Numbered from the stretch's first letter, positions 44,019-59,586 are shown. The stretch: 64,000 nt of DNA from Escherichia phage UE-S1 (ON568341.1), one strand, 5' to 3'. A program made the numbers and translations. Notes: generated by a model from the sequence alone, not told the origin.

Positions 44019-44024
44019 ATAATG

Positions 44025-45167
44025 TCAATAAGTATCCCAAGGTAATGGTGTCTTCCTAAATCCATACCTGGTTGTGCTCGCACCATCACCAGCAATGTAT
44101 CTACCTATACCACATTGGTATAACTCTGTACTACTACATATAGCACCACCTATAGTACCACTACTCCACTGAATTATATTAGAATATGTTATTGGTAAAT
44201 CACTACATTTAGTATATACAGCAACGGTAGAAGCACCACTAATACCACCAAACATACTTCGCTTAGCACCAGTGTAATATATACCATCTGGACTCATAAA
44301 TGCAGAGGTGTAAGTTGTACTGCAATCCACTGGACTTCTTATTGTATTAAGATCGCCTGGATATGTTCTGACACCAAAGGTGTATACATTACCATCAGTT
44401 GTAATACCATTACCTAACTGCCCACTGTTTTGTCCACCACATGTAAGCAACGATGCAGAACCAGAAACAATTGCAGTAGCATTATACGAAGTGCCCATTG
44501 CAATAGAAGCACCAGACAATAGTTTTGGAGTAACAATAGCTGTTGTATTACCCTGGCCTAATTCACCATTTGTGTTTCGTCCCCATGCGTATATGGAAGT
44601 AGTATCCAACCTACATAGTACTGAACCATAACTAAACGTATATCGCATGTCAATTACCGCAGAAGGCAAATTAACCTTAGTTGCAACACTAATAACACCA
44701 CCAGTAACACCACTGTTTGCGTTCATGTTACGACCATATGCATATAAAGAACCATCTGAAGTTTTAATATGCATCATACCATCTGTACAATATAATGCAT
44801 CTATACTCTCCACCGCAACCGGACCCATACTGGTAGTTATATCGGTCCACCCAAGAGTAGTAGTACTAGAAATTAAGTTATTTCCTGCGTATAGTATTCT
44901 ATTATTATTAGTAACTACAACTGTATATCTGGCAGTAACACCAATTAATCGAACATCAGTATATATCTTAGACCACGCACCTAATGAATTGGTGTTTGCA
45001 TCCAAAAAGCCCAACTGCCCATCTGTATTGTATCCAATGCCCCATACATCACCTGCACTGTCCAATAACACTTCATGTGAAAATCCAATCTTAAAATCTT
45101 TTATTGTAGGAACTACCGGATCTGGTGCAATATTCCCGTACTTAACCATTCTAGTAAAAGGTAACAT
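44025..45167 (-). CDS. RCC1-like beta-propeller protein with conserved N-terminus (array member 5)
   Basis: MLPFTRMVKYGNIAP; repeats GYNTDGQLGF, GRNTNGELGQGN, GGQNSGQLGNG. Confidence 0.7.
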   Translation of the reverse strand: MLPFTRMVKYGNIAPDPVVPTIKDFKIGFSHEVLLDSAGDVWGIGYNTDGQLGFLDANTNSLGAWSKIYTDVRLIGVTARYTVVVTNNNRILYAGNNLISSTTTLGWTDITTSMGPVAVESIDALYCTDGMMHIKTSDGSLYAYGRNMNANSGVTGGVISVATKVNLPSAVIDMRYTFSYGSVLCRLDTTSIYAWGRNTNGELGQGNTTAIVTPKLLSGASIAMGTSYNATAIVSGSASLLTCGGQNSGQLGNGITTDGNVYTFGVRTYPGDLNTIRSPVDCSTTYTSAFMSPDGIYYTGAKRSMFGGISGASTVAVYTKCSDLPITYSNIIQWSSGTIGGAICSSTELYQCGIGRYIAGDGASTTRYGFRKTPLPWDTY

Positions 45168-45203
45168 AATTCCCTCCCTTATTCATTATAATATATTTAA
45201 TAC

Positions 45204-45234
45204 AAAAAAGAAAAGCCAGTACTTGAGTACTGGC
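45204..45234 (-). terminator. inter-cassette hairpin plus T-run
   Basis: GCCAGTACT-TG-AGTACTGGC. Confidence 0.55.
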
Positions 45235-45240
45235 ATTATG

Positions 45241-46350
45241 TTATTTTGGTAAATCAATTTTAGTAAAGACTGCAACATCCTCGCTTGCCCCAGGAATGGC
45301 GTAATACGATCCAGTACTATATACATCTCCGTCTTTGGTTAATATTGATGTTAAACCATCACTAAAAAGAACATCCCTAATCTCACTAACTTCAACGGGT
45401 AATTGTAAATTAGTAGCACTATATATTGCACCAGTTTGAGAATTGTTTAATCCCAAACCACGGTTCGCCCCAACACCCTTCTGATATGTACTAGTAATTA
45501 TCATTTGTGTAGCAGTATTTAAGGCAGGTGAATTCGTCATAAACAACGGAGAACTATTAGGCAAAGTACTTGCAGGAACTGCACGAAATGAAGTTGTATC
45601 TGAACTAAGAAAGTTTGGCGTTTGACCACATACGAAATATGATGTACCATTATAGTAATTAAATGCATTACCACCAATGACTGCATCGATTACACCAGAG
45701 CTACGTAATCCCCACGTGTTAATTTGTGTTCGGTTCCCCGTGCCATGCTGACCCCTGTCATTCCACCCAGAACTATATAACTTATTATCTAATGTAATAT
45801 ACATACTGTCATTTGCATTCGTCATTACTTTACGCACATTAGTAGCACATTGAGTTAATGTGTAAATTGATGATGAACCAATACCTAAAGCACCACGATA
45901 TCCATTAGCTCCTGCACCATAGAGTACTGAACTAGTGCTAAGTACAAATATTAAACCATACGAACATACAATATTAGCAATTTCACTCACTGGTATAGCA
46001 CTGGTAAACCAATTAGTTCTTTCAACTAATACTGTGCTGTAAGAAGTAGTTGTAGACGATGTGAACCAATATGTTTCCCCTGATGTCCATATAGTATTAT
46101 CATTTTTAATAATAACAAGTGCACGATCACCTACGAAAAAATTAGAAACATCTGCACTTACTAATATCCATGAAGATACCGTGTTTTTATTACCATTTCC
46201 AGATTCACCACCTTGATTTCTACCTATGTAATATAAATCATGTGAATCAGTTAATAAGAATTGACCCTGTGTAGATGCACCAACTTTAATTATATTTTTA
46301 GGACCAGGTACAATATTCCCATAATCAAACATTCTTACAAAAGGTAACAT
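45241..46350 (-). CDS. RCC1-like beta-propeller protein with conserved N-terminus (array member 4)
   Basis: Track ORF to 46365; start moved to internal ATG (MLPFVRMFDYGNIVP) with GGAG 9 nt upstream. Confidence 0.65.
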   Translation of the reverse strand: MLPFVRMFDYGNIVPGPKNIIKVGASTQGQFLLTDSHDLYYIGRNQGGESGNGNKNTVSSWILVSADVSNFFVGDRALVIIKNDNTIWTSGETYWFTSSTTTSYSTVLVERTNWFTSAIPVSEIANIVCSYGLIFVLSTSSVLYGAGANGYRGALGIGSSSIYTLTQCATNVRKVMTNANDSMYITLDNKLYSSGWNDRGQHGTGNRTQINTWGLRSSGVIDAVIGGNAFNYYNGTSYFVCGQTPNFLSSDTTSFRAVPASTLPNSSPLFMTNSPALNTATQMIITSTYQKGVGANRGLGLNNSQTGAIYSATNLQLPVEVSEIRDVLFSDGLTSILTKDGDVYSTGSYYAIPGASEDVAVFTKIDLPK

Positions 46351-46387
46351 AACTAAAATCTCCATATAATAATTATAATGTATTTAC

Positions 46388-46420
46388 AAAAAAATACCAG
46401 CACATATTTCAGTACTGGTA
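46388..46420 (-). terminator. inter-cassette hairpin plus T-run
   Basis: TACCAG..AGTACTGGTA stem with T7 on minus strand. Confidence 0.5.
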
Positions 46421-46425
46421 TAATG

Positions 46426-47607
46426 TTATGGTAAAATAATAGCTTGTAACGAACTCATACCCAATGTTGGAACACTCGCCTGTGGTGCTGGAGAATTCAA
46501 TTTTGGTGATGAAACCGCATATGACATTCCTGAACCCAAATCTGGATCAAAAACTACAGCACAATAATTCCCACTATATATAAGTCCATTCTTGTATCCT
46601 TGTGCACTTTGAATGCATTTCGTGAACGTACCAATATCTGTAGTGGCATTTATTAAGTTCCTCCCACGATAACCGCAGGTGTATATGAAATTATCATCGC
46701 CTATGTACATACTAGAATCCCCAGAAGAACTACATAGATACGACATATAAGCACGCATGTTTTTAGGAGCAACTGACAATGTACCTGCATAGAATTTATT
46801 ATTCGAACCCGTAATATTACCATCACCCAATGCACCAAAACTTCCCCAGCCAGTACCGTAATATCTCTTATCACTCAAAAATATAATACAGTTGTTATTA
46901 CACATCTTGATTTGATATATCAATGAAGGATCAATCCCAGGGAATGATTCAGTGAATGTTAGAACAGCCGGATCAGTACTAGCATTACATTGATGATATG
47001 TATTAGTACCAGCGGACAAGATTGTTCCATTAGCTAACAGAATTCTCGCAGTACCAGTACCAGCAGTACAAGCAACTGCACTTCCTGCACTTCCGGTGTA
47101 TATTTGTCTGAAAGTAAAGAAACCAACAGTTTTACTTCCCTGCCCACTCCAACCAGTATTATCAACTCCACACGCCCATACTGAACCATCTTGCATGATC
47201 ATCATTACACCAAAGCGTTCTATTGAAATATAAACAATCTTCGTTGTATCAACTGCACTAAATCTAGAAGTTATATCAGTCCATACCTTAACACTTACCG
47301 CCGTCGCACTGGAAGTAGGATCTTCACCAGCTATCATTATCCTCCCATTGTTAGTAAGATACATTGTCTGACTATAACCAGTACTACAAAACTTAACACT
47401 ATCAGTCTCTGGAACTTTTAACCACTCGTTGTAACGTGTTACGTTAGTGTTATTACCTAACTGATAATAGTTATTCATCCCAGATACATATAACACACCA
47501 TCCTTTATTAAACTATAAGTCGCACTATAGTCACTACAGGTATAACGTGTACCCACAGGTGGCTCAACGACGTTCCCGTACTTAACCATTCTCCCAAAAG
47601 GTAACAT
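46426..47607 (-). CDS. RCC1-like beta-propeller protein with conserved N-terminus (array member 3)
   Basis: MLPFGRMVKYGNVVEP; repeats NNYYQLGNN, DNTGWSGQGS, GSFGALGDGN. Confidence 0.7.
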   Translation of the reverse strand: MLPFGRMVKYGNVVEPPVGTRYTCSDYSATYSLIKDGVLYVSGMNNYYQLGNNTNVTRYNEWLKVPETDSVKFCSTGYSQTMYLTNNGRIMIAGEDPTSSATAVSVKVWTDITSRFSAVDTTKIVYISIERFGVMMIMQDGSVWACGVDNTGWSGQGSKTVGFFTFRQIYTGSAGSAVACTAGTGTARILLANGTILSAGTNTYHQCNASTDPAVLTFTESFPGIDPSLIYQIKMCNNNCIIFLSDKRYYGTGWGSFGALGDGNITGSNNKFYAGTLSVAPKNMRAYMSYLCSSSGDSSMYIGDDNFIYTCGYRGRNLINATTDIGTFTKCIQSAQGYKNGLIYSGNYCAVVFDPDLGSGMSYAVSSPKLNSPAPQASVPTLGMSSLQAIILP

Positions 47608-47642
47608 AATAAAATCTCCGTAATTAAATTATATAGTATTTA

Positions 47643-47676
47643 CAAAAAATACCAGTACATATTTCAGTACTGACCT
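47643..47676 (-). terminator. inter-cassette hairpin plus T-run
   Basis: CAGTAC-loop-GTACTG palindrome with T-run. Confidence 0.5.
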
Positions 47677-47680
47677 ATTA

Positions 47681-48802
47681 TTAAAAGGGCAACGGTAACT
47701 CAGTAAAAGTACTTACGTCCGGTAAACCATACATTAAATTAGCATCACCACAGTAATACCACTTCGTAGAATCATGTACCACCGATAAACGCTGTGCACA
47801 TAACACTTCCTGTATGTCATTAAACACCATCGGGACTAACTCATATGTATCTGCAAATGAAGATTCACTACCACTCGCATGAAAAGTATTTGTCCCAGCA
47901 TAAAATAACTGATTAGTGTTCTTACCCACAGCAAATGTTATCAAAACCCCATCATTCTCCCATAAAGAAGAAAACTTATCAACACTACCAGAAAGCTCTG
48001 TGTAAGTACTCGTAATGGCACTCGCCGCCGCCGCATTACCCATCTGTTTATTCAAGTTCTGTCCAGCAATAAAATATCTCGTTCGTGCACTAGAATCAGT
48101 ATATAATAACCCAGTGTTCGTAGTCATCATTCCAATGTCCTTAATCGTCATATCAGTCTGTGAATAACTTAGATACGAAGTTAAATTAACATTATTACCC
48201 AACGAACCGTTAGAACTCATGCCACAACGATGTAATATACCACTTGTATCAACGTAGATAGTACTAACTAAACTCGTATACAACTCTTGTACATTATTCG
48301 CAATAAACACAGCAGTCGCCTTATTACTAACCCCACCAAATGATAGGTTATTATCAAATCCCTTAGCGTATAATTGATTATTAGTAGTCAATAATCCAAT
48401 CGTGTAATAAGACATTTTCATATCCCTTACTGTACTCAAATCTACTGCCCCAAATTGATACGTAACATCTGTCCATTTGAAAATCTGTGCACTACCAACA
48501 CCACCCGTTTCAAACCATTTGTCACCACAGTACAATATGCGATTATCCTTAGTAAAGATAACTGTTAACAATCCACTACCACACGCAAACTTTACATCAC
48601 TTCTAACCTTCGTCCAATCAAGTACATAGGTAGTGGTGTTATTACCTATACCTAACTTGCCATAACGGTTATAACCACGCACCCATAAATCACCACTCTT
48701 AGTAATTAATAGTAATGCGTCTCCTGTACTTATTATTCGAAATCCCGAACTAGGATCAGGGGCAATATTCCCGTACTTAACCATTCTCCCAAAAGGTAAC
48801 AT
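47681..48802 (-). CDS. RCC1-like beta-propeller protein with conserved N-terminus (array member 2)
   Basis: MLPFGRMVKYGNIAPDP; repeats GYNRYGKLGIGNN, SSNGSLGNN. Confidence 0.7.
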   Translation of the reverse strand: MLPFGRMVKYGNIAPDPSSGFRIISTGDALLLITKSGDLWVRGYNRYGKLGIGNNTTTYVLDWTKVRSDVKFACGSGLLTVIFTKDNRILYCGDKWFETGGVGSAQIFKWTDVTYQFGAVDLSTVRDMKMSYYTIGLLTTNNQLYAKGFDNNLSFGGVSNKATAVFIANNVQELYTSLVSTIYVDTSGILHRCGMSSNGSLGNNVNLTSYLSYSQTDMTIKDIGMMTTNTGLLYTDSSARTRYFIAGQNLNKQMGNAAAASAITSTYTELSGSVDKFSSLWENDGVLITFAVGKNTNQLFYAGTNTFHASGSESSFADTYELVPMVFNDIQEVLCAQRLSVVHDSTKWYYCGDANLMYGLPDVSTFTELPLPF

Positions 48803-48837
48803 ATTTTCCTCCTTTATTCATTATACTATATTTAATA

Positions 48838-48869
48838 CAAAAAGAAATGCCAGTATCAAGTACTGGCAT
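48838..48869 (-). terminator. inter-cassette hairpin plus T-run
   Basis: ATGCCAGTA-TCAAG-TACTGGCAT. Confidence 0.55.
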
Positions 48870-48875
48870 ATTAAT

Positions 48876-50024
48876 TCATTGTATAAATGACATATCTACT
48901 TCTGTATAATTAAGAACGTTCTGTCCAGAAATACCACCCATTACTACTATTGCAAGGCCACAATAATATAATTTTCCAGTATCCGTAAGTATAAGTGATC
49001 CAGATGGACTGCGTACCAAATCACACGAACTATTAAAAGAAGTATAAGAAGGAGTATAGGAGTACTGATTATTATTATTACCAACACCTAATTGCCCAAA
49101 CCCATTCGATCCAGAAGCATATAGAACTTCATCTGCTTTGACAATATGTGATGCCATGTTACCAACACAAGTATATAGAGTATAAACTCCTGAACTCAAT
49201 AATGTCGGAGTTTTATATTGTATATCTGTAGATGTAGAAGTACCACCTGTACCAAATTCGTTCCCATATTGTGCACCGAACTGTTTGCCACAAGCGTACA
49301 AATTATTATCCGATTTGATAAAAAATGTACTCTGATAACTTACATTAAAATCTATAACATCCGAAGAAATCATCGTCACCCCAGTAATAGAAGTTTGATT
49401 ACCCGTGCCCAACTGGTAGTAATAGTTAAAACCACAACCCCATAAAGTATTATCTTCTCGCAAATAAATGTTACCAACTGCCTTTTTAACCGAAGTTATA
49501 GTATCTACTCTTTTGAATGTGTTAAAAGAATTAATGTTTGTACCATCACCAAATGATGATATGTTCGATATATTGTTAACTCCACAACAATACAATGTAC
49601 CATCTTTTGTTATCAAATTCACCTTCATATCATAAAAACTACTCATGTATTTTATATCAGAAACATTAACACCACTTGATGTTATCCACGTAGTACAGTC
49701 CGTCCACAAAGTTTTTCTATCAGTTACACCAGTGAATGCCTTCGTGTTACCAGTGATAAAAACTTTTCCAGTACCTTTCTCTTCATACAATTGACAATCA
49801 CTACTGTTATCTTCCAATAGAACTCGTTTAACATTCTCCGCACAAAGAATAAATTTACTCGATGCTACACCTGTACCAGTACCCCAATTCGTCGCAGAAG
49901 ATGCATACAACTTATCAGTATAAGTATCATGAAGATACATAGAATCACTGGAATATATTTTAAAACGCCCTTCTTTCTCAGGTATAATATTCCCGTACTT
50001 AACCATTCTCCCAAAAGGTAACAT
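48876..50024 (-). CDS. RCC1-like beta-propeller protein with conserved N-terminus (array member 1, most upstream)
   Basis: MLPFGRMVKYGNIIPE; repeats GFNYYYQLGTGN, GSNGFGQLGVGNN. Confidence 0.7.
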   Translation of the reverse strand: MLPFGRMVKYGNIIPEKEGRFKIYSSDSMYLHDTYTDKLYASSATNWGTGTGVASSKFILCAENVKRVLLEDNSSDCQLYEEKGTGKVFITGNTKAFTGVTDRKTLWTDCTTWITSSGVNVSDIKYMSSFYDMKVNLITKDGTLYCCGVNNISNISSFGDGTNINSFNTFKRVDTITSVKKAVGNIYLREDNTLWGCGFNYYYQLGTGNQTSITGVTMISSDVIDFNVSYQSTFFIKSDNNLYACGKQFGAQYGNEFGTGGTSTSTDIQYKTPTLLSSGVYTLYTCVGNMASHIVKADEVLYASGSNGFGQLGVGNNNNQYSYTPSYTSFNSSCDLVRSPSGSLILTDTGKLYYCGLAIVVMGGISGQNVLNYTEVDMSFIQ

Positions 50025-50066: not shown

Positions 50067-50095
50067 TTGACACCCTTTCAGTACTGTTGTACAAT
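50067..50095 (+). promoter_or_regulatory. sigma-70-type promoter (TTGACA-17-TACAAT)
   Basis: TTGACACCCTTTCAGTACTGTTGTACAAT in divergent intergenic region. Confidence 0.5.
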
Positions 50096-50120: not shown

Positions 50121-50348
50121 ATGACAAATACCCTTAAGTACTACCTCAATACTCTGCCCGACCTAGAGTACGGGAAGTTTCTCGCAGATAGTTCGTGGCT
50201 GATTGAGCTAAAAAAATATAATAGTCCCGGATGCACCCTTATGATGAACAATGCAATTGATACCCTTATAGTGAGTATTTTACATAGCAACATCTACGGG
50301 GATAACAATAAACAATTAACAAAAATCTTAGTACTGCTATCTCTATGA
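50121..50348 (+). CDS. small protein, tandem paralogue family C
   Basis: Track ORF trimmed to ATG after AGGAG; N-terminus MTNTLKYYLNTLP. Confidence 0.5.
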   Translation: MTNTLKYYLNTLPDLEYGKFLADSSWLIELKKYNSPGCTLMMNNAIDTLIVSILHSNIYGDNNKQLTKILVLLSL

Positions 50349-50557
50349 ACACTATGAGCACTGAACAGTTCTACATCAATGCACTACCAACTAAAAGTCT
50401 TCAAGAAAGCTTACTGTATACACAAAAGAATTTTAAAAACTTCAAACGTTGCCCTAAACTACTGAACTCGTACAGGAATAATATTATAAGAAATGTTTTA
50501 CAAGGAGAAGAAAGTATGCAATACTATCACATCCTTATACTTATATTGGAGTACTAA
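50345..50557 (+). CDS. small protein, family C
   Basis: ATGA overlap; ends LILILEY. Confidence 0.5.
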   Translation: MNTMSTEQFYINALPTKSLQESLLYTQKNFKNFKRCPKLLNSYRNNIIRNVLQGEESMQYYHILILILEY

Positions 50558-50558
50558 T

Positions 50559-50768
50559 ATGAATACTGAACATAAAGAATTCTACACCAAATACCTCAGT
50601 AACGAAGAACAATTGTTTCTAAGAAGTGTATCACCGGTAAGTACCAATACTCAATTCGGTAGAGATTGCTTTAATAATTGTATACGTAGTACCCTAGAAG
50701 CAATCGAATATAATAACAAAAATATTATGTACTCAGGTTTAATAGGACTAATATTCTTCTATGAATAA
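50559..50768 (+). CDS. small protein, family C
   Basis: Start in TACTAATATGAATA junction; MNTEHKEFYTKYL ... LIFFYE. Confidence 0.55.
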   Translation: MNTEHKEFYTKYLSNEEQLFLRSVSPVSTNTQFGRDCFNNCIRSTLEAIEYNNKNIMYSGLIGLIFFYE

Positions 50769-50955
50769 TCATAAAGATTTCTATGGTAGTAAACTACACA
50801 AACATGAACAGCTATCATTCTCTTTAGCACCACCTATGAGAAAGGATAATCTATATTATAATTACGATTTCAGGATGGCGACACGTTATGCAATAGAACA
50901 TCAGTTCCCTGAAACTAAGTACCGCTCTATCCTGAACCTCATCTTTAAGTTCTAA
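50761..50955 (+). CDS. small protein, family C
   Basis: MNNHKDFYGSKL ... LIFKF. Confidence 0.55.
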   Translation: MNNHKDFYGSKLHKHEQLSFSLAPPMRKDNLYYNYDFRMATRYAIEHQFPETKYRSILNLIFKF

Positions 50956-51002
50956 AAACAGCACCAGGGTCCGAGTACTTTAACATAGTAAGGCTAATTA
51001 CA

Positions 51003-51188
51003 ATGAATCATATACGCTACTATTACCAACAACTATCCGACAGGGACAAGTACAGCCACAATTCCCATGTATGGTACTACAAACGCGGCAGTATAAGAGA
51101 CAAACAACATTACTTCTGTATTTCTATTAAAGAAGCACTAACAACTAAGTACACGTACAGAGCAGTACTTAAACTAATCTCTATCTAA
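51003..51188 (+). CDS. small protein, family C-like
   Basis: Track ORF in array. Confidence 0.45.
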   Translation: MNHIRYYYQQLSDRDKYSHNSHVWYYKRGSIRDKQHYFCISIKEALTTKYTYRAVLKLISI

Positions 51189-51196
51189 GGAATACT

Positions 51197-51376
51197 ATGC
51201 AAGAATTCTATATAGAACATATAACCATAAAAGACCGTTTCATGTACCACACCTTCGTGAAATACTACAAACTGGGAACAAAAAGTACTAAAAATATTAA
51301 TCTCAATAGCTGCATTCATTCTGCACTAACAAAAGATAATCCCTTCAGGGAAATCCTCGCACTAGCATCTGTATAA
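51197..51376 (+). CDS. small protein, family C (59 aa, below track cut-off)
   Basis: ATG after AAGGAATACT; MQEFYIEHI. Confidence 0.45.
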   Translation: MQEFYIEHITIKDRFMYHTFVKYYKLGTKSTKNINLNSCIHSALTKDNPFREILALASV

Positions 51377-51386
51377 AGGAAACCAA

Positions 51387-52046
51387 ATGAAACTTAATGC
51401 ACACAGCAAACAATACCTTAAGCACTTTAAGTACCTCAACAGTATTCAAGCAGAATCTTTTACACCAGCATATACGTATCACCCTAATGTACTAAAGAAA
51501 CGAAATAAAAAGAAAAAATCCAGAAATGTTCTCGTATCTAAGAACCTCAAATCGTACTTGAAGAAAAATAATATAGCTCTTGCTTTTATTAATATCTATA
51601 ATACTGATTTAAAAGTATTGAGTACTAATACCAGCACAAAAGCACTAAAGAATGCATCTATCTATATACACATGGATAATATCCCGTGCACTATAATTCT
51701 ATCTTCCGGGAATGTATACTTCTTCGGGAATTGTAATAGCACCCATGATATCAGTACTGCACAATTCCAAATCGGAGATATGTACTGCATGGGTTCAGAA
51801 AAAATACACGATAATATGCACTTCTTCCAAAAGCAACGTACTAACGAAACTGATACAGTACTGCAATTCCTCAAAGAACTAGAACACAAAGAATTATCCG
51901 AGGAAGAAGAATTCATGTACAGTACTGTAATCGATAATCCAGGACTCTATAAAAACGCGTACAAACTAACAAAACATGTACAGGAACTTATCAGTACTGA
52001 TAAGAAAATTCATCACCTCATTACGTATATTTCAAACTATGTATAA
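51387..52046 (+). CDS. hypothetical protein (219 aa) within family C array
   Basis: Track ORF; basic N-terminal region. Confidence 0.5.
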   Translation: MKLNAHSKQYLKHFKYLNSIQAESFTPAYTYHPNVLKKRNKKKKSRNVLVSKNLKSYLKKNNIALAFINIYNTDLKVLSTNTSTKALKNASIYIHMDNIPCTIILSSGNVYFFGNCNSTHDISTAQFQIGDMYCMGSEKIHDNMHFFQKQRTNETDTVLQFLKELEHKELSEEEEFMYSTVIDNPGLYKNAYKLTKHVQELISTDKKIHHLITYISNYV

Positions 52047-52221
52047 AGAATACTACATAGAGAAACTCCCAATGCATCTACAACACCATATACCAAACGT
52101 TGCATTGGGCATAACCGAGCACGCAAAGATAATGTTCCAACAATGTACTAAGTACACGCTCATATACGATGATAATCCATATATGCTGTACTACGTAGTA
52201 ATGCTAACATTCAGGTACTAA
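52039..52221 (+). CDS. small protein, family C
   Basis: Track ORF trimmed; MYKEYYIEKLPMHL ... TFRY; ATGTATAA overlap. Confidence 0.55.
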   Translation: MYKEYYIEKLPMHLQHHIPNVALGITEHAKIMFQQCTKYTLIYDDNPYMLYYVVMLTFRY

Positions 52222-52222
52222 T

Positions 52223-52402
52223 ATGAATACTTATAAAGAATTCTACCTCTCGTACCTTAATTCCGATATAGTAACATCCAATACATTCAGTACTAAAATT
52301 ATCTATAATGAAGTAATGAAAGAATGTATTAAAGGTGCTATTAACCCTAAAGATACGTATGACTTGTACTATGCAGTACTAACCCTTGTTTTCACGAAAT
52401 AA
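52223..52402 (+). CDS. small protein, family C (59 aa, below track cut-off)
   Basis: TACTAATATGAATA junction; MNTYKEFYLSYL. Confidence 0.5.
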   Translation: MNTYKEFYLSYLNSDIVTSNTFSTKIIYNEVMKECIKGAINPKDTYDLYYAVLTLVFTK

Positions 52403-52410
52403 CACATAAT

Positions 52411-52602
52411 ATGAATAACCACAAAGAATACTACATAGAGAAACTCCCAATGTATCTCCAACACCTTCTACCAACAGAACCATTGCGTATAGAAAAAAAC
52501 TACGAAAAAGACTACTTCATTCAGTGCACTAAATCCTCGATATATATTGAAGACTATAATCGAGTACTGTATCACATCCTTTTACTAATATATAAGTACT
52601 AA
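52411..52602 (+). CDS. small protein, family C
   Basis: MNNHKEYYIEKLPMYL ... LLLIYKY. Confidence 0.55.
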   Translation: MNNHKEYYIEKLPMYLQHLLPTEPLRIEKNYEKDYFIQCTKSSIYIEDYNRVLYHILLLIYKY

Positions 52603-52603
52603 T

Positions 52604-52792
52604 ATGAATAACCACAAAGAATACTACACACAATTTCTCCCCAGCATTTTGGAACAATACGCCAGATATAAAGTCCCCCTCGATAACGATTTGGCAGTAC
52701 TGGGATTCAATAACTGCATAGAACGAAGTATAGAAAATAGTAATAGCTATGAACAATTATATAACACTATCCTACTTATATTCAGGTACTAA
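52604..52792 (+). CDS. small protein, family C
   Basis: MNNHKEYYTQFLP ... LLIFRY; TAATATG coupling. Confidence 0.55.
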   Translation: MNNHKEYYTQFLPSILEQYARYKVPLDNDLAVLGFNNCIERSIENSNSYEQLYNTILLIFRY

Positions 52793-52793
52793 T

Positions 52794-52982
52794 ATGTATA
52801 AAGAATACTACGCAAAATATTTCCCAATGTATCTCAGAACTAATCTATTAGATAAACCTCGCGATATCAATGCACAAAACGATAAAGTGTACTTTATTAT
52901 GTGCACTAAAGCATGTATACTAGATCATGACAGCTACCATCGAGTACTGTATCATACACTGTACCTAGCTTTCGTATACTAA
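52794..52982 (+). CDS. small protein, family C
   Basis: Track ORF trimmed; MYKEYYAKYFPMYL ... LAFVY. Confidence 0.55.
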   Translation: MYKEYYAKYFPMYLRTNLLDKPRDINAQNDKVYFIMCTKACILDHDSYHRVLYHTLYLAFVY

Positions 52983-52983
52983 A

Positions 52984-53042
52984 ATGTACTCCGGTTTAAT
53001 AGGACTAATATTCTTCTATGAATAATCATAAAGATTTCTACA
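52984..53042 (+). repeat. 59-bp near-identical direct repeat of 50728-50786 (gene-junction duplication)
   Basis: ATGTACTC(A/C)GGTTTAATAGGACTAATATTCTTCTATGAATAATCATAAAGATTTCTA present twice. Confidence 0.8.
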
Positions 53043-53197
53043 TAAGCCATCTGGATATAAACTCCCAAATGCTTATACTACTAAACACAATAGATTTCAA
53101 GGATAAGAAAAAGATCCAACAATTCATTGACCATACGGACCGTGCTGTGAACCAAAATTATATGTACTACATTCTCGCCCTAATATACAGGTACTAA
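53018..53197 (+). CDS. small protein, family C (59 aa, below track cut-off)
   Basis: MNNHKDFYISHL ... LALIYRY; preceded by duplicated junction. Confidence 0.5.
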   Translation: MNNHKDFYISHLDINSQMLILLNTIDFKDKKKIQQFIDHTDRAVNQNYMYYILALIYRY

Positions 53198-53198
53198 T

Positions 53199-53384
53199 AT
53201 GCATAGAGAATACTATATACAATTTGTTAAAGAAAACTACAAACACGCCGTCCCCGTAAACCCTTTAAATTCTAATGACCCAAGTACTATATTCTTGTTC
53301 CATGACGCAATACGTACAGTACTCAATACTAAAGATGAACAAGTGCAGTACGTATTCTTACTTTTACTTATATACAGACACTAA
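53199..53384 (+). CDS. small protein, family C
   Basis: MHREYYIQFV ... LLLIYRH. Confidence 0.55.
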   Translation: MHREYYIQFVKENYKHAVPVNPLNSNDPSTIFLFHDAIRTVLNTKDEQVQYVFLLLLIYRH

Positions 53385-53397
53385 AGCACTAACTAAT

Positions 53398-53598
53398 ATG
53401 AATAAAGAATATAAAGACTTCTATATAAGTAAACTAAAAGAAAATGAACAAGCATGGATTCAACCACTAATAATACTTCCATTTAATAGATATTCATTGA
53501 ACCGATGTACCGAGATTGCTATAGACCCTTGTCCTATTAAAGAGAATGTACAATACAATCAGTACTACTATATCTTAATGCTTATATATAGGAAGTAA
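53398..53598 (+). CDS. small protein, family C
   Basis: Track ORF trimmed; MNKEYKDFYISKL ... LMLIYRK. Confidence 0.55.
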   Translation: MNKEYKDFYISKLKENEQAWIQPLIILPFNRYSLNRCTEIAIDPCPIKENVQYNQYYYILMLIYRK

Positions 53599-54285
53599 TT
53601 AAACACATATAGACAGGGGAAGCTCCGTAGTGGAAGCATTATACAGGCTTTAACATATGTTGCATATGTTAAAATTCAGCCTGGACAAATGCGATCACTA
53701 GGATTCTCCCCAGGCTAAACCCCGTAACTCTACAGAGAAGCCAATAGCTTCTCTTTGTCATAGGTAGTCATAAGTAATCATATATAAACATTTAAGTAAT
53801 CATTCATACGCACGGTAGTGATTAGTATTGAGTACTAGAGTACAGGAATGTTCACGTTTAATCAAGAACGTAGCAGTACTGCCCCAAAAGTATTCAGTAC
53901 TGAAGGTGTCGATATCCCACTAAGTAGGCAGAGGAAGTCTGCCGTACTTTGTAGTTTCCAAGCTCCTTTTCCATTTTTCAAATTACATCAAATGTATTCA
54001 AAAGTAATCACGTAATGATTAGTACTGAATTATTACTTTCACCTTAATTCCAAATACTCTTTTACCCTTCGGGGAAAATCCCATTACCCCTTGAGGCTCC
54101 AGCAAAAAGTTGGAAAGTACTCCATCGTAAATCTGGATCGTAAAAATTTTGGAGTACCTATGAAATAAAAGTTGGATCTTCGAAAGTTGAAATTTACGTT
54201 GGGACATATAGGATTGATGGGATATAATGAGTTTTGTAGAGATACAGATTATACGATTTCAGTACTGAATAATGAAAGAAAGCTA

Positions 54286-54313
54286 TTGACTTTATGATTC
54301 AGTACTGTATAAT
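54286..54313 (+). promoter_or_regulatory. sigma-70-type promoter (TTGACT-16-TATAAT) with no downstream ORF
   Basis: TTGACTTTATGATTCAGTACTGTATAAT inside ORF-free region. Confidence 0.5.
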
Positions 54314-54689
54314 GTTCTATATAGAGAGATGAGTTGCCGCAAACAATTCATTCACTCTACCTCCTGTCGTGAGACAGTACAGAAAAGATAGTTCCTCCTA
54401 TGGGTGGTACATCTTTTTATAACCTCTTTTTTCGTAATATAAACAGTACTGATATTAACAGAATGGTGTCAGTACTGATTTTAATCTAATACAATACACC
54501 CACCAGCTTGTGCTGGTGGATTATCCACTAACAGTATTCAGTACTACATGATAGTCTTCATCCTCCTAGGGTAACATAGTGAGGGCTATTGTGGGAGTAC
54601 TGAATACTCCTTTCACAAGATAGATCTATGGTATAGTACTGACGGATTTTGGGCGTAGTAAGCCTAGGTTAAATTTAGACGTAGAGATG

Positions 54690-54835
54690 TCTAGACCTCC
54701 AGATGGTTGGAAGTAAAGATGGCTATCCCTCTAGGCGGCTGGATGGCTAGATTTCTAGATGGCTGTACTGCTAGACGTTTGGACGGCTAAACGGCTAGAT
54801 GGTTACACGTCTGGAAGTATAGACGGCTAAATCAA
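54690..54835. repeat. iteron-like cluster of short degenerate direct and inverted repeats
   Basis: Recurring CTAGATGG, GGCTAGAT and AGACGGCTAAA units. Confidence 0.6.
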
Positions 54836-55452
54836 AATTTTTATTCTGTTTTTTCCAATAGTTCCCCTACCGCGTGAGGATGTTTTTCCCCGCAGTATCT
54901 GGTGTTAGATTTTTCTGAATCTGGAATCATTATCTAATAAACTGGGGGCAATGTCAACGGCCTGGATGAATATTTTTAAAAAATAATCTAGTACTAAATT
55001 TTGGGCGTAACTATGCACCCGGTGGGCTTGAGTCTTTCTCGACTTGATGAAATAATTATATCAGTACTGGAAAAATAAAGCAATACCATGGAAGCAAAAA
55101 AGTTTTAATTAATTTGCTTGCTATCCTGGGCCGGACTATGGTACTATATTTCAGTACTGAGAAAGTGCGTTTACCTGCTAGGGTGCGGGAGTGTATCCTT
55201 TTTTTATATCTTGAATTTTGGGCGTAATTCCGCACCCTCTGGGGTTTCCGCTTTCTCGCGTCTATGTAGTAATTATACGCTTTTTTAGTACTGAGTCAAT
55301 AGCCAAAAACAAAATAATTGAAAATAATTTAACGCGTTTAAACGGCCTGTAAAGCCCTGAAATGATTAGAATGGTGCAAATGTATAGCTTAGGTGTATTA
55401 ATGCGTTAGAATGCGTCTGAGGCCGTTTTACGTGGTATAGGGATGATTTAGT

Positions 55453-55548
55453 GGATTGATTCAGTACTGAATAATAGTACTCCTATATAGAAAGATAGTT
55501 CCCCTGGATTGATTCAGTACTGAATAATAGTACTCCTATATAGAAAGA
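55453..55548 (+). repeat. tandem direct repeat (~43-bp unit, 2 copies, period ~53)
   Basis: GGATTGATTCAGTACTGAATAATAGTACTCCTATATAGAAAGA twice. Confidence 0.8.
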
Positions 55549-55579
55549 AAACTATTTTAAAAGTATTTGTAGAAAGTAC

Positions 55580-55607
55580 TTGCACAGTACTGAAAAAAGC
55601 GTATAAT
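55580..55607 (+). promoter_or_regulatory. early-type sigma-70 promoter (TTGCAC-16-TATAAT) followed by 5-prime stem-loop 55624-55636
   Basis: Conserved AGTACTTGCA..GCGTATAATGTTTTACATC module then GGGAA-CAC-TTCCC. Confidence 0.6.
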
Positions 55608-55661
55608 GTTTTACATCGAGAGCGGGAACACTTCCCTACTCACTTTTAAGAGATTAAAACG

Positions 55662-56024
55662 ATGGCGACTCAAATCACTAAAATCATTGCTAACCTGGTT
55701 AACTTCCGCGACGATATGAAAGATCTTCCGGCGGCAACGGTTAAAACTCACATTGACGCATACCGCGAACTGATTAAAATGTTGCCGCTTAAGCGTGAAC
55801 AATACGCCGCTAAACTGATGCTTGATGCGATGATCCATAAGATGATCGCCAGTGATTTGACGATGGTTTATCAGTATATGGGCGAAAATTTCGCGGTGTA
55901 TAGTAAACCAGTACCAGGAATGGAAAGTACAGAAGTATTACACGGTTTAAATTTAAAACAAGATGCATGGGATAATATGCCTCGTTTCCTGGTATGGGCT
56001 GACAGTGGCAAAATTTACGAATAA
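55662..56024 (+). CDS. hypothetical protein (120 aa)
   Basis: Track ORF; own promoter and 5-prime hairpin. Confidence 0.6.
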   Translation: MATQITKIIANLVNFRDDMKDLPAATVKTHIDAYRELIKMLPLKREQYAAKLMLDAMIHKMIASDLTMVYQYMGENFAVYSKPVPGMESTEVLHGLNLKQDAWDNMPRFLVWADSGKIYE

Positions 56025-56037
56025 GTTAAAAATTAGT

Positions 56038-56065
56038 TTGACAGTACTGAATAAAAGCGTATAAT
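56038..56065 (+). promoter_or_regulatory. early-type promoter (TTGACA-16-TATAAT) followed by stem-loop 56078-56096
   Basis: TTGACAGTACTGAATAAAAGCGTATAAT then GTGGGGAA-TAG-TTCCCCAC. Confidence 0.6.
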
Positions 56066-56116
56066 GTTTTACATCAGGTGGGGAATAGTTCCCCACTATA
56101 TAAGAGGATTAAAAAA

Positions 56117-56356
56117 ATGGCTAAATCAAAAATGTTCTTAGGTCACAAAAACAAAACTCATTGGAATGTAAGCCTGTGGATTAATAACGATGAGGGATTG
56201 TATCGGTTGGCCCTGGACTTTATTGCCGCCCATACTAATCGCAATGATGCGGCCCGTCATATGATGTTATTTTTAGAACAGACTGGACAAGATAAAACAC
56301 CGGACGGATTCAAATATAGCACTACTGCGATCCGTGCGGCGATGGTTGGAATGTAA
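56117..56356 (+). CDS. hypothetical protein, paralogue of 58157-58396
   Basis: Track ORF trimmed to ATG after AGAGGA; conserved GHKNKTHWNVSLWINN and PDGFKYSTTAIRAAMVGM. Confidence 0.55.
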   Translation: MAKSKMFLGHKNKTHWNVSLWINNDEGLYRLALDFIAAHTNRNDAARHMMLFLEQTGQDKTPDGFKYSTTAIRAAMVGM

Positions 56357-56442
56357 TAGAATTTATTTAAAGTACTATCATTTTTTTGCGATAGTACTTT
56401 ATAATAGTGTTTTATTCATACACCAACGATAAGGGCAACAGC

Positions 56443-56709
56443 ATGAATATTAAGTATTTTGCGACGCGTGAACAAGCTCGGATCGCCGCACGCCAGGACG
56501 GGGCAACGTTTAAAGATATGGGCGTACAATCGGAACGTGGTAAACGTTGGGCCATTGTAAAGCGTAGTACCGCCAGATCATTACAGTACTGGTTAGCGGC
56601 CTTAAAAAGTCCCGATAGTGTATCGCGTCGAGTGGTAGAAATAAAGCTCGACCGAAAGGGCAACCGCGTGACTGTGTACCGTACTAAAAAGATTGCAGTA
56701 CTTGAATAA
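56443..56709 (+). CDS. hypothetical protein
   Basis: Track ORF trimmed to ATG at MNIKYFATRE. Confidence 0.45.
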   Translation: MNIKYFATREQARIAARQDGATFKDMGVQSERGKRWAIVKRSTARSLQYWLAALKSPDSVSRRVVEIKLDRKGNRVTVYRTKKIAVLE

Positions 56710-56716
56710 AAAGTAC

Positions 56717-56744
56717 TTGCAAACTATGTTTAAAGGCGTATAAT
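56717..56744 (+). promoter_or_regulatory. early-type promoter (TTGCAA-16-TATAAT) followed by stem-loop 56759-56775
   Basis: TTGCAAACTATGTTTAAAGGCGTATAAT then GCGGGAA-CTC-TTCCCGC. Confidence 0.6.
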
Positions 56745-56796
56745 GTTTTACATCGAGAGCGGGAACTCTTCCCGCCTATAACCTGGAGTAATAAAA

Positions 56797-57027
56797 ATGA
56801 CTAATATGTATATGACTGAAGTTAAAACCGTAAAAGATACTACCACGAATAAAACTACTTACTTACAGCGGATCTGTGGTGTATGGCAACGTATCAGCAA
56901 ATCAAAGTACTTTAAATTAACATCATATGCAAACCGTTCGGATTCATTCAGTACTGAAATAAAAGGTAATAAAGTACACCAATACGGCACTTATTATTAT
57001 TACAGCCTGGACGCGATTGCAGTATAA
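56797..57027 (+). CDS. hypothetical protein (76 aa)
   Basis: Track ORF after promoter, hairpin and GGAG RBS. Confidence 0.55.
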   Translation: MTNMYMTEVKTVKDTTTNKTTYLQRICGVWQRISKSKYFKLTSYANRSDSFSTEIKGNKVHQYGTYYYYSLDAIAV

Positions 57028-57278
57028 TCATATTTTTTGAAAAATTTACAATTGCCGGTATTGACTTATTTTGTCAGTACTGGCATAATGTATTCATTGG
57101 CAGATAAGCCGTAGCCCATAGGGTGCGGGAGTGTATCTATAGAAAAATTAGTTTAGTATAGTTACAATTGTGCACCCGGTGGGTTAGCTGTTGTCATGGG
57201 GTATATTATGCCAGTACTTGATAATGCTGTCAATACTTTTTTTACTATTCAGTACTGAAAACTATTTTTAAAAAGTAC

Positions 57279-57306
57279 TTGCTAACTATGTTTAAAGGCG
57301 TATAAT
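57279..57306 (+). promoter_or_regulatory. early-type promoter (TTGCTA-16-TATAAT) with stem-loop but no ORF
   Basis: Promoter and ACGGGG..CCCCGT hairpin with no ATG before the next promoter. Confidence 0.5.
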
Positions 57307-57394
57307 GTTTTACATCAGGACGGGGAACGAAATAAGTAACCCCGTTAAGTAGTCCAGGAGTAAGACATACGAAAAACTCCCCTGATAAAATAGT

Positions 57395-57422
57395 TTGACA
57401 AATGTTTTTAAAAGCGTATAAT
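57395..57422 (+). promoter_or_regulatory. early-type promoter (TTGACA-16-TATAAT)
   Basis: TTGACAAATGTTTTTAAAAGCGTATAAT upstream of 57455 gene. Confidence 0.6.
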
Positions 57423-57454
57423 ACTTACATCAACTACTGAATGAGGGTTACAAA

Positions 57455-58066
57455 ATGAAAACTATCACTACTACTACTTTTGTTATGGCTTTTTCTGAAC
57501 TGAACGCAGAACAAAAAACGGCGGCTATCGAACTGGTTCGGGATCGTGAGCGTTCATGTGAGGATAATTTCTTTGCTGAGGGCGTTATCGAGTACTATAA
57601 AGAAACAGTACTACCAGAATACGGCATAGATGAAGCTGAATTGCAATACAGTGGTTTTTGGTCGCAAGGTGACGGTGCATCAATCAGTACTGACAGCGTG
57701 GACGCGGAGAAGTTTTTACGCAAGATTAAAGCGTTAACGAAATATCGTTCTATCCGTCACTTGTTGAATGAAGATGATTTGGCAATGAGTGTAGAACGTT
57801 CACACTCTCGCTACGCACACGAAAACACGGTAAGCGGTTGCGTTGATACTCGCTACACTGATTTAACTGTAAAACAAGCGGCACTTGCTGATGACCTGGA
57901 AAACTTACTGACTGATGCGATCCGTGAATTATCTCGTAAGTTGTACCGTGATTTAGAGAATGCATATGAGGATCAATTCACTACTGAAAACATTACTGCA
58001 CTGATTGAGGGTAACGAATATCAATTCAATGTTATTGATGGCGTAGTGGAATCAATCGAATATTAA
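57455..58066 (+). CDS. acidic hypothetical protein (203 aa)
   Basis: Track ORF with GAGGG RBS; D/E-rich. Confidence 0.6.
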   Translation: MKTITTTTFVMAFSELNAEQKTAAIELVRDRERSCEDNFFAEGVIEYYKETVLPEYGIDEAELQYSGFWSQGDGASISTDSVDAEKFLRKIKALTKYRSIRHLLNEDDLAMSVERSHSRYAHENTVSGCVDTRYTDLTVKQAALADDLENLLTDAIRELSRKLYRDLENAYEDQFTTENITALIEGNEYQFNVIDGVVESIEY

Positions 58067-58156
58067 TTCAAAAAGTACTTGTAAACTAAGTTTAAAAGCG
58101 TATAATACTTTACATCAAGGCGGGGAGTGGTTCCCCGCTCAAACGAGGATTTAAAA

Positions 58157-58396
58157 ATGGCTAGTACTAAAACTTACAACGGACACAAAAACAAAACTCA
58201 TTGGAATGTAAGCCTTTGGATTAATAACGGTGAGTCATTGTATCGGCTTGCACAAAGTTGCATCGCACAAAGTAGAACTAAAGATATTGCTGCGGAATGT
58301 ATGTACCGCAGATTAAAAGCCAACGGTACTACTACAACACCGGACGGATTCAAATATAGCACTACTGCGATCCGTGCTGCAATGGTTGGAATGTAA
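58157..58396 (+). CDS. hypothetical protein, paralogue of 56117-56356
   Basis: Track ORF trimmed to ATG after GAGGA; conserved N- and C-terminal blocks. Confidence 0.55.
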   Translation: MASTKTYNGHKNKTHWNVSLWINNGESLYRLAQSCIAQSRTKDIAAECMYRRLKANGTTTTPDGFKYSTTAIRAAMVGM

Positions 58397-58453
58397 TATT
58401 CAGTACTGAGATAATGGCGGGTAATAGTTCCCGCCTTTACTGAGGGTTATCTA

Positions 58454-58714
58454 ATGAGTAAAGTAATTAGCTATACAGCACTAAGCAAGACATTATCTAT
58501 TAGCCAGTGCACCGATGGTTATTGGCTATTTGATGAAACGCGTGGCATGAATTTAGCCATGCGTGCAAAAACTGCTGAGGCGGCGTATCTTGAAGCATTG
58601 GAATACTACCAGGAACGTTTAAAGGAAGTAGAAGAAGATTATAAAAGCCTCAAAGCGAAAGTAGATCATTTCGTCGGTCAATTCATCGAGGAAGACGACG
58701 ACAAACAATATTGA
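58454..58714 (+). CDS. hypothetical protein (86 aa)
   Basis: Track ORF after GCGGG..CCCGCC hairpin and GAGGG RBS. Confidence 0.55.
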   Translation: MSKVISYTALSKTLSISQCTDGYWLFDETRGMNLAMRAKTAEAAYLEALEYYQERLKEVEEDYKSLKAKVDHFVGQFIEEDDDKQY

Positions 58715-58800
58715 AAAAGTACTTGCAATTAGTTTTCAGTACTGTATAATGGTTTACATCAAAGGGAGAAATGGTTCTCCCTGGTAATGAGGAAAATAAA

Positions 58801-59022
58801 ATGGCTAATATCACTACTCTTTCCCAACTGGAAGCACTGGTGAAATCTATGCGGGAACATGCCGACAAAATCGGCGTACAAGATCCAGCCGTTTGCTTCT
58901 GCGACGAATTGAATGATGATACACTGGTAATAGCAGAAGTCCAGGACGTTTCTAACTATTCCTCGCGTTACACTGGCGGCGTAGCAAATAAAGGCGACTT
59001 CTGTTTATACCTTACAAAATAA
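58801..59022 (+). CDS. hypothetical protein
   Basis: Track ORF trimmed to ATG after promoter, GGGAGAAATGGTTCTCCC hairpin and GAGGAAAA RBS. Confidence 0.55.
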   Translation: MANITTLSQLEALVKSMREHADKIGVQDPAVCFCDELNDDTLVIAEVQDVSNYSSRYTGGVANKGDFCLYLTK

Positions 59023-59265
59023 CAACGCGGGGAGATAATAACTCCCCGTTACTTTTTCAGTACTGAATCATTTAATAGACGGATCTCGGCACCCGGTGGG
59101 TTAGTGACTGTTTCGTCTTGATGTAGTAATTATGCCAGTACTGGATGCACTTGTCAACAACTATTTTTCAAATACTTTTTATTAAAATACTTGCAATTAG
59201 TTTTTAAACGCGTATAATGTTTTGCATAGGGGGAGCGGTTCCCCTGGTAACTAAGGAATAAGAAA

Positions 59266-59502
59266 ATGCTCGAACAAATCAAATCAACGTCTGCGAATGT
59301 AACGGGAACTGTATCACACTTTACTAGTGATGAATCGCGTGGTGTTCCTTATTGTGCTGTACATGTAAACACTGATGGCAACTACTGGTTTACGGTTTAC
59401 GGATCATATTCATTTGGTCGGCCAGGACATCAAAAAATCCTGGATAAAGTACAGCCAACGGGTAAAAATATCACTGCTGAAATGTTTTATAAAAAATCAT
59501 AA
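59266..59502 (+). CDS. hypothetical protein (78 aa)
   Basis: Promoter, GGGGGAGCGGTTCCCC hairpin, AAGGAA RBS. Confidence 0.55.
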   Translation: MLEQIKSTSANVTGTVSHFTSDESRGVPYCAVHVNTDGNYWFTVYGSYSFGRPGHQKILDKVQPTGKNITAEMFYKKS

Positions 59503-59586
59503 AGTACTTGATAATAGTTTTTAGTACTGTATAATATTTTACATCGCAAGGGGGAGCGGTTCCCCCTGGTAACTAAGGATAATAAA

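Follow-up and report, generated by a model that had tools for sequence, protein, structure and literature searches.

Positions 50121-53598 of a 64,000-nucleotide (nt) stretch of Escherichia phage UE-S1 (ON568341.1), the whole of which we refer to as the window, carry on the plus strand 15 back-to-back open reading frames (ORFs), g1 to g15. Fourteen of them are small genes encoding proteins of 59 to 75 residues, and one, g7, encodes a protein of 219 residues (Table 1). The region has about 90% nucleotide identity to the Escherichia coli and Salmonella Asteriusvirus jumbo phages PBECO4, 121Q, phAPEC6, and SP27, and on its sequence the window can be assigned to an Asteriusvirus of the PBECO4/121Q/phAPEC6 group. 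A previous sequence-only reading had described the block, with exactly these boundaries, as a tandem array of about 14 translationally coupled paralogs of some 60 residues, and much of that description holds. The size class is right, the three members that it placed just below a 60-residue ORF cutoff are g6, g9, and g13, each of 59 residues, and the two signatures that it singled out are real, the N-terminal motif as (M)NxHKE[YF]Y..L and the hydrophobic C-terminal tail as Y..IL.LI(Y/F)(K/R)Y. Its count requires amendment: 13 of the small genes form one family, the membership of g1 is unsupported, and the embedded g7 had been overlooked. Overlapping or abutting stop and start codons, which it had ascribed to the junctions of the array in general, are present at 8 of 14 junctions, five as TAA-N-ATG and three as overlaps of 4 or 8 nt, while the other 6 junctions have gaps of 8 to 47 nt.

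Alignment and profile searches, which the same reading had proposed as a check on whether the apparent family was an effect of AT-rich codon bias, separate the small proteins clearly from their background. A profile of the 14 small proteins scores its members at 54 to 84 bits and the other 958 ORFs of the window (at least 30 residues, six frames, the same AT-rich sequence) at no more than 10.6 bits. For comparison among genomes, the window and the orthologous loci of ten relatives (11 genomes in all) were scanned with the family profile, and leave-cluster-out profiles were built from these 11 genomes, each omitting the ortholog group under test. With the latter, 13 of the 14 small genes score 26 to 65 bits (E = 5e-7 to 3.5e-19). 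A composition artefact was ruled out, as the family profiles give every other ORF in the window 11.6 bits or less. Five members, g3, g4, g10, g11, and g15, also match phrog_11711, a PHROGs family of unknown function, over profile positions 1-62 (E = 9e-13 to 7e-27). The PHROG scan gave no match for g1, g2, g5, or g6 at E ≤ 0.01; of these, g2, g5, and g6 enter the family through the wider leave-cluster-out profile. The membership of g8, g9, g12, g13, and g14, which lay outside the PHROG scan, rests on the family profiles.

Two of the ORFs stand apart. The first gene, g1, scores 7.1 bits with the leave-cluster-out profile (E = 0.38), and an hhalign comparison with the family aligns only its first 16 residues, at a probability of 3%; all that it has in common with the family is the N-terminal motif LKYYLNTLP. 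Because of this score and this short alignment, g1 would appear to be a very distant relative at best. None of the 11 genomes lacks it, and it is present in the more divergent phage A4 as well. The protein encoded by g7, in the middle of the array, had been suspected from its N- and C-terminal patterns to be a family member with an insertion, a candidate that was rejected at an hhalign probability of 0.3% against the family. It is basic, with an isoelectric point (pI) of 9.3, and a homolog is located mid-array in all 11 genomes and in A4. Its relatives number just 23, all at least 66% identical and confined to the genus. As a functional clue g7 was set aside: these 23 close homologs are all that there are, and its AlphaFold2 (AF2) model, with a predicted local distance difference test (pLDDT) score of 38, is unusable.

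Table 1. Features of the small-gene array and its borders in the window (aa, amino acids; E values as described in the text)
Feature	Position	Strand	Product or sequence	Remarks
σ70-type promoter (candidate)	50067-50095	+	TTGACA-N17-TACAAT	11/12 consensus; best plus-strand site near the array
g1	50121-50348	+	75 aa, type B	First operon gene; doubtful family member
g2	50345-50557	+	70 aa, type C	Member, leave-cluster-out E = 5e-7; ATG overlaps g1 stop (ATGA)
g3	50559-50768	+	69 aa, type D	Member, phrog_11711 E = 9e-13, leave-cluster-out E = 1e-15
g4	50761-50955	+	64 aa, type E	Member, phrog_11711 E = 2e-22; 8-nt overlap with g3
g5	51003-51188	+	61 aa, type F	Divergent member, leave-cluster-out E = 9e-9; basic, pI 9.7
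g6	51197-51376	+	59 aa, type G	Divergent member, leave-cluster-out E = 1e-8
g7	51387-52046	+	219 aa	Unrelated protein mid-array; phrog_29152 E = 5e-114
g8	52039-52221	+	60 aa, accessory type P	Leave-cluster-out E = 6e-14; 8-nt overlap with g7
g9	52223-52402	+	59 aa, accessory type Q	Leave-cluster-out E = 7e-9
g10	52411-52602	+	63 aa, type H	phrog_11711 E = 7e-27; member modeled by AF2
g11	52604-52792	+	62 aa, type I	Family profiles and phrog_11711
g12	52794-52982	+	62 aa, type J	Family profiles
Type-D gene 3'-end remnant	52983-53017	+		Last 35 nt of a D gene
g13	53018-53197	+	59 aa, type K	Family profiles; chimeric 5' end
g14	53199-53384	+	61 aa, type L	Family profiles
g15	53398-53598	+	66 aa, type M	Last array gene; family profiles and phrog_11711
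Conserved structured noncoding element	53616-53728	+		Directly past the array; RNA fold z-score -4.7
Terminator-like hairpin	53734-53754	+	AGAGAAGC-CAATA-GCTTCTCT	Followed by TTGTC

Ortholog types and turnover of gene cassettes

Clustering of the family members at ≥60% identity yields 24 ortholog types. Twelve of these (BCDEFG/HIJKLM) are present in 11 of 11 genomes in a near-constant order, from which only D moves; the remaining 12 are accessory, and the differences between genomes consist of whole-gene cassettes. The order in the window is BCDEFG/PQHIJKLM. Copy number across related genomes, which had also been proposed for comparison, does vary, with member counts of 14 (the window, the smallest set), 15, 16, 17, 18, 19, 20, 20, 21, 21, and 22. 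The members form one block per genome, and all 203 family domains detected with the profile hidden Markov model lie on one strand, in ORFs with a recognizable start.

The paralogs within an array are strongly diverged. Their pairwise amino acid identity has a median of 22% and a maximum of 48%, Tandem Repeats Finder detects no DNA-level tandem repeat of ~190-nt period in the array, and DNA similarity between array genes is limited to 50 to 60 nt around the junctions. A DNA-level tandem repeat or noncoding array was rejected on the empty repeat search and on ratios of nonsynonymous to synonymous substitution (dN/dS) below 1 in most ortholog types. The genes are thus not near-identical, as had been thought, and the dosage amplification that had been read from them is contradicted: an identity of about 22%, together with the retention of 12 types in all 11 genomes and in near-constant order, indicates that the duplications are old and that each copy has been individually maintained. 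A recent amplification of one effector gene, in the manner of a genomic accordion, would suit the tandem layout and the copy-number differences among isolates, but we regard it as refuted, since, besides the low identity and the missing DNA repeat, every genome has a separate ortholog of each type, and the range of 14 to 22 arises from gain and loss of distinct ortholog types. The other possibility that the sequence-only reading had raised, diversification of a small effector, fits the 24 types and the copy-number range, as well as the dN/dS of about 0.5 and the pattern of conservation between and within types that are described below. The decoy or regulator role that it had suggested for such an effector gains no support from the comparisons, in which the family showed homology to nothing characterized, nor do they speak against it.

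The window itself carries a direct scar of ectopic recombination at the junctions. A 57-nt repeat at 52984-53040 is 98% identical to the window's own g3/g4 (D/E) junction at 50727-50783, and the type-D gene remnant that precedes g13 overlaps this repeat. In WPEC5, EC.P1, and vB_Ec-M-J, type D is situated between J and K as a complete gene. Moreover, the type K gene of the window, g13, begins with eight type-E-like codons that are present in no other K ortholog. The D remnant within the repeat and the E-like 5' end of type K together point to recombination between conserved junctions. In phage A4, which has 17 members, the left half of the array is conserved and the right half is reshuffled, with types H, I, and K missing. 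The array of the window resembles those of other Asteriusviruses in its location between an RCC1-like array and the terminal repeat, in its promoter, and in its ortholog types. It differs from them in having the smallest set (14, compared with 15 to 22), in its unique chimeric type K and type-D remnant, and in a 30-nt hairpin insertion past the array.

As far as the searches reach, the family seems confined to Asteriusvirus. Family proteins account for 58 among 5.8e9 clusters, and an exhaustive profile search of 1.84e9 representative proteins returned 30 family representatives, all of 41 to 75 residues, and no distant relatives beyond Asteriusvirus. With tblastn, the family was found in 33 phage records, all from Escherichia or Salmonella Asteriusvirus. 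Pfam, NCBIfam, and PADLOC gave no match for the family, the PDB sequences gave no meaningful match (a designed repeat protein alone fell below E = 1), and among known anti-defense and defense families no characterized member matches in sequence or fold. Orthologous arrays include genes 249-265 of 121Q, every one of which is annotated as "hypothetical protein," gp540c-548c of phAPEC6, and the corresponding genes of PBECO4, JP4, WPEC5, and others. The locus is, then, already deposited as "hypothetical" in more than 30 genomes and as a PHROG family. None of the papers that we consulted describes the small-gene family, its 24 types, or its cassette dynamics; where they mention arrays, these are the RCC1-like one or an array of more than 30 genes that is not further specified.

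Selection and the predicted fold

The Nei-Gojobori dN/dS values among orthologs are 0.18 to 0.77 for most types, with a pooled value of 0.48, and reach 1.0 to 1.1 in types H and R. These values indicate coding sequence under relaxed purifying selection. Between types, conservation is concentrated in about a dozen hydrophobic or aromatic columns with helical spacing, the conserved profile columns being K5, E6, F/Y7, Y8, L12, F37, C40, I/L45, Y54/55, L58, L60, and I61. Y8 is invariant and L59 (in g10 numbering) is nearly so. Within types, conservation is 0.85 to 1.0 at every column.

From a family alignment of 64 sequences, AF2 predicts g10 to be an all-α three-helix protein (pLDDT 90.3, predicted template modeling score 0.76), with helices at residues 3-10, 14-17, 30-45, and 49-62 and a loop at residues 18-29. 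No structural relative of the predicted fold was found outside the genus. As judged from helical spacing rather than from measured burial, the conserved columns are likely to constitute the hydrophobic core, and by the same token the variable positions are probably at the protein surface. Neither a transmembrane segment nor a signal peptide was found, the maximum Kyte-Doolittle value over a 19-residue window being 1.18, and the C-terminal hydrophobic stretch of about 10 residues corresponds to the last AF2 helix of g10. The members show no consistent charge, with pI values from 5.1 to 9.7, and tyrosine makes up 10.9% of their residues.

Expression signals and candidate roles

The candidate promoter of the array is accompanied by an AGGAG sequence 8 nt ahead of the g1 ATG, and all ten relatives have TTGACA-N17-TACTAT and AAGGAG at the equivalent site. 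Within the array (50.1-53.6 kb), no comparable promoter and no terminator-like site was found. The junctions recurrently take the form (A/C)AGG-TAC-TAA-T-ATG, in which the last codons of the upstream gene hold a partial Shine-Dalgarno sequence. Among 181 junctions across the 11 genomes, 87 either have a 1-nt gap (55) or overlap (32), and a further 83 have spacings of 5 to 15 nt. Given the promoter, the missing internal signals, and the form of the junctions, the most economical reading would be early polycistronic expression by the host RNA polymerase with partial translational coupling. Promoters that match TTGACA-N16-18-TA(C/T)AAT perfectly occur at 12 plus-strand sites of the window (4452, 10925, 12772, 14134, 14459, 19081, 19429, 23388, 32028, 50067, 56038, and 57395), which fits a large early region composed of short genes. 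In the related phage CBB, such regions of short ORFs behind RpoD-like promoters have been regarded as early host-takeover genes (PMC5259590).

Our preferred interpretation, to which we hold tentatively, is that the array represents an early, diversified family of small cytoplasmic binders that has been remodeled by recombination at its junctions and that probably serves in host takeover or counter-defense. The evolutionary and structural parts of this interpretation are well supported; the early timing, the translational coupling, the cytoplasmic binding, and the role in host takeover or anti-defense are what we infer from context. The conserved σ70 promoter would drive a polycistronic early transcript of about 3.5 kb, which would encode 13, or perhaps 14, soluble three-helix paralogs of about 60 residues together with the unrelated 219-residue protein. 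Neighboring genes would be translationally coupled through TAA-N-ATG junctions or overlaps, with (A/C)AGG-TAC-TAA as the source of a weak Shine-Dalgarno sequence. The paralogs would share the core K-E-[YF]-Y..L, F..C....I, and Y..IL.LI and be type-specific at nearly all other positions. Positions that are type-specific yet conserved within types are the pattern expected of a common scaffold with specialized binding surfaces, and the proteins most likely work early in infection, in the cytoplasm of the host, where different members would bind or inhibit different host factors stoichiometrically. Homologous recombination between junction sequences would add, delete, move, and chimerize whole-gene cassettes.

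Several points weigh against this interpretation. The expression and the roles that it assigns to the members are deduced from sequence features, among which the promoter is a consensus match only. A dN/dS of about 0.5 combined with frequent cassette loss also fits weakly selected, partly dispensable genes, and fixed order with coupling could point to the subunits of a single complex. In addition, the absence of the members from a virion proteome is weak evidence for proteins this small.

If the paralogs were indeed parts of a single assembly, as its subunits or as interchangeable adaptors, the face that is conserved (KE[YF]Y and the C-terminal helix) would form homo- or hetero-oligomers or dock on a common hub, either g7 or a host machine, and translational coupling would set the stoichiometry. 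The near-constant order of 12 types in 11 genomes with g7 always mid-array, the frequent stop/start coupling, the invariant Y8 and nearly invariant L59 in an otherwise variable protein, and the very high tyrosine content would all suit such an assembly. We nonetheless consider it unlikely, as the accessory types vary freely (14 to 22 copies), A4 lacks types H, I, and K, and the helical-core spacing of the conserved residues fits a folding core better than an interface. It is quite improbable, in our view, that the array forms a combinatorial repertoire in which the same conserved elements make up an invariant face that docks every paralog onto one hub while type-specific surfaces capture different host defense or housekeeping proteins. 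This hub would be g7 itself or some machine of the host, for instance a protease or RNA polymerase; cassette shuffling at the junctions would diversify the repertoire, accessory types would tune host range, and the array would be to a bacterial virus what the terminal multigene families are to African swine fever virus (ASFV) and poxviruses. Small regulators or architectural proteins that bind phage or host DNA or RNA, possibly reading the palindrome AGTACT, would be in keeping with the basic character of g4, g5, and g2 (pI 9.2-9.7), with the roughly 10-fold over-representation of AGTACT, which reaches its greatest density near the array and the terminal repeat, and with the neighboring RCC1-like proteins, which have been proposed as DNA organizers. 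This idea strikes us as decidedly unlikely, because several members are acidic or neutral within a pI range of 5.1 to 9.7 and no basic patch is conserved between types.

That the genes are largely dispensable filler, persisting by recurrent duplication and recombination, is suggested by the dN/dS of 1.0 to 1.1 in types H and R, by whole cassettes being lost without obvious consequence (the set of the window being the smallest), and by the absence of homologs outside one genus. It is very unlikely, however, given that 12 types are intact in 11 of 11 genomes, that 203 of 203 family domains are on one strand in ORFs with recognizable starts, that pooled dN/dS is 0.48 and within-type conservation 0.85 to 1.0, and that the promoter and Shine-Dalgarno sequence are conserved. 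We attach still less weight, and regard as highly improbable, a role as packaged internal proteins that are injected with the DNA as in T-even phages, with the shared N terminus as a capsid-targeting sequence. The T4 capsid-targeting sequence is MKTYQEFIAE, which the N-terminal motif resembles, as in MNTYKEFYLS of g9. The T-even internal-protein loci consist of small polymorphic genes with a conserved 5' sequence that favors shuffling, and among their products IPI acts against restriction. The array is like these loci in having small polymorphic genes with a conserved 5' sequence, and T-even internal-protein loci are likewise hyperplastic; moreover, Asteriusviruses are distant T4 relatives, and 121Q has an inner-body-like feature. 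However, no (L/I)xE prohead-protease site is conserved behind the motif (between-type conservation is 0.33 and 0.29 in columns 9 and 10), and conservation in the array reaches the middle and the C terminus of the proteins. The motif forms helix 1 of the AF2 model (block pLDDT 83-93), which fits a folded element better than a detachable leader, and the array has a promoter of the early, host type instead of a late one. Finally, the phAPEC6 virion proteome included a 4.7-kDa protein and the RCC1-like gp549 and gp551 (PMC7247149), but the mass-spectrometry table of 62 virion proteins contains none of the family (gp540c-548c), which is a weak negative for small proteins (PMC7247149).

Tandem paralog arrays have been regarded as a route of jumbo-phage genome growth, with the RCC1-like array of phAPEC6 and 121Q, about 35 zinc-ribbon copies in Bacillus phage G, and ">30 very similar genes" in 121Q and G as examples (PMC5646251, PMC7247149, PMC7824862). 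The array described here is likewise a lineage-specific tandem array of paralogs. Its proteins differ from those examples in being about 60 residues long, all-α, without a known domain, and far more diverged than "very similar," and its genes appear to form one operon with coupled junctions. The MGF110, MGF360, and MGF505 multigene families of ASFV and the terminal host-range families of poxviruses consist of diverged tandem paralogs near a genome terminus, with copy-number variation among isolates and recombinational cassettes. Here, too, diverged paralogs adjoin a terminal repeat and member content varies by isolate, but the array proteins have no relation to those families and are far smaller, the host is a bacterium, and a role in immune evasion is a hypothesis. 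The array is also reminiscent of anti-defense islands, which are clusters of small, fast-evolving, lineage-restricted, early phage proteins (early timing being presumed for the array). Such islands usually mix unrelated proteins with a helix-turn-helix (HTH) regulator, whereas the array consists of one paralogous family, has no HTH gene, and shows no match to any solved anti-defense structure.

Jumbo-phage genomes are mostly composed of small early genes without assigned function, and the array offers a tractable block of these, with one promoter, 13 to 22 related proteins, and a confidently predicted fold. More than 30 isolates have been sequenced, and across them the array divides naturally into 12 conserved types and at least 12 accessory ones. 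If the proteins are binders, they would constitute a ready panel for finding targets of host takeover or counter-defense in E. coli and Salmonella, and the accessory types could help explain differences in host range among therapeutic Asteriusvirus candidates. If they prove to have no phenotype, the array would document inflation of a jumbo genome by old duplications beside a terminal repeat.

Surroundings of the array

Divergent from the small-gene array, the minus strand at 39481-50024 carries eight full-length RCC1-like paralogs of about 380 residues; a ninth ORF among them (43216-43953, 245 residues) fell outside their BLASTP cluster. Two phAPEC6 orthologs of the RCC1-like paralogs, gp549 and gp551, are virion proteins (PMC7247149). 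Most of the eight spacers of the RCC1-like genes (40627-48875, minus strand) hold a terminator hairpin with an AGTACT-built stem, GCCAGTACT..AGTACTGGC, and a T-run, two of the hairpins having a degenerate second arm. Downstream of each of these hairpins come a TATAAT-like box and a Shine-Dalgarno sequence.

On its other side, the array is followed directly by the structured noncoding element, which is more conserved than the flanking genes. Its 3' part (~53676-53728, about 53 nt, the GTTAAAATTCAGCCTGGACAAATGCGATCACTAGGATTCTCCCCAGGCTAAACCCCGTAA region) is invariant in 10 genomes, including the divergent A4, and its inner hairpin varies in a compensatory manner. A covariation test was uninformative because the element is invariant. 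The element may serve the operon, as its 3' end or as a stability element, or it may be a signal tied to the boundary of the terminal repeat. The terminator-like hairpin beyond it sits in a 30-nt insertion (53729-53758) that is present in the window alone among 10 aligned genomes. A search of Rfam with 49.5-58 kb, which includes the noncoding element, matched no family.

The terminal repeats of related phages are direct repeats, of 20,993 bp in fEgEco12, where they were confirmed experimentally, and of 21,525 bp in vB_Ec-M-J (PMC13070987). Mapping of the window onto these two genomes places the repeat boundary at ~53.9 kb, about 300 bp past the array. The unique region would thus have the array as its final coding block ahead of the right terminal repeat, and the last 10 kb of the window would lie inside this repeat of about 21 kb. 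The ~2 kb past the array (53.6-55.66 kb) is unannotated in 121Q, SP27, phAPEC6, and vB_Ec-M-J, and in other records the ORFs predicted for it are few and very short. Both strands of this stretch carry near-consensus promoters.

The AGTACT palindrome (extended form cAGTACTg) is the most over-represented hexamer in the window, with 211 occurrences compared with ~19 expected. It is densest at 52000-64000 and occurs in all three codon phases. Codon usage would predict AGT-ACT for 18.6 of the 124 Ser-Thr dipeptides and GTA-CTN for 21 of the 125 Val-Leu dipeptides, but each of the two codon pairs is used 49 times. The presence of the motif in all phases, together with this excess of codon pairs, indicates that it is selected at the DNA level. 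A literature search for AGTACT as a phage promoter or motif found nothing relevant. The tRNA cluster of the window (71-4849, including 71-145 and 2918-3009) has one ambiguous four-base anticodon call (tcat) and one tRNA-Ser whose anticodon, ACT, would pair with AGT, the codon that comes first in the enriched AGT-ACT pair.

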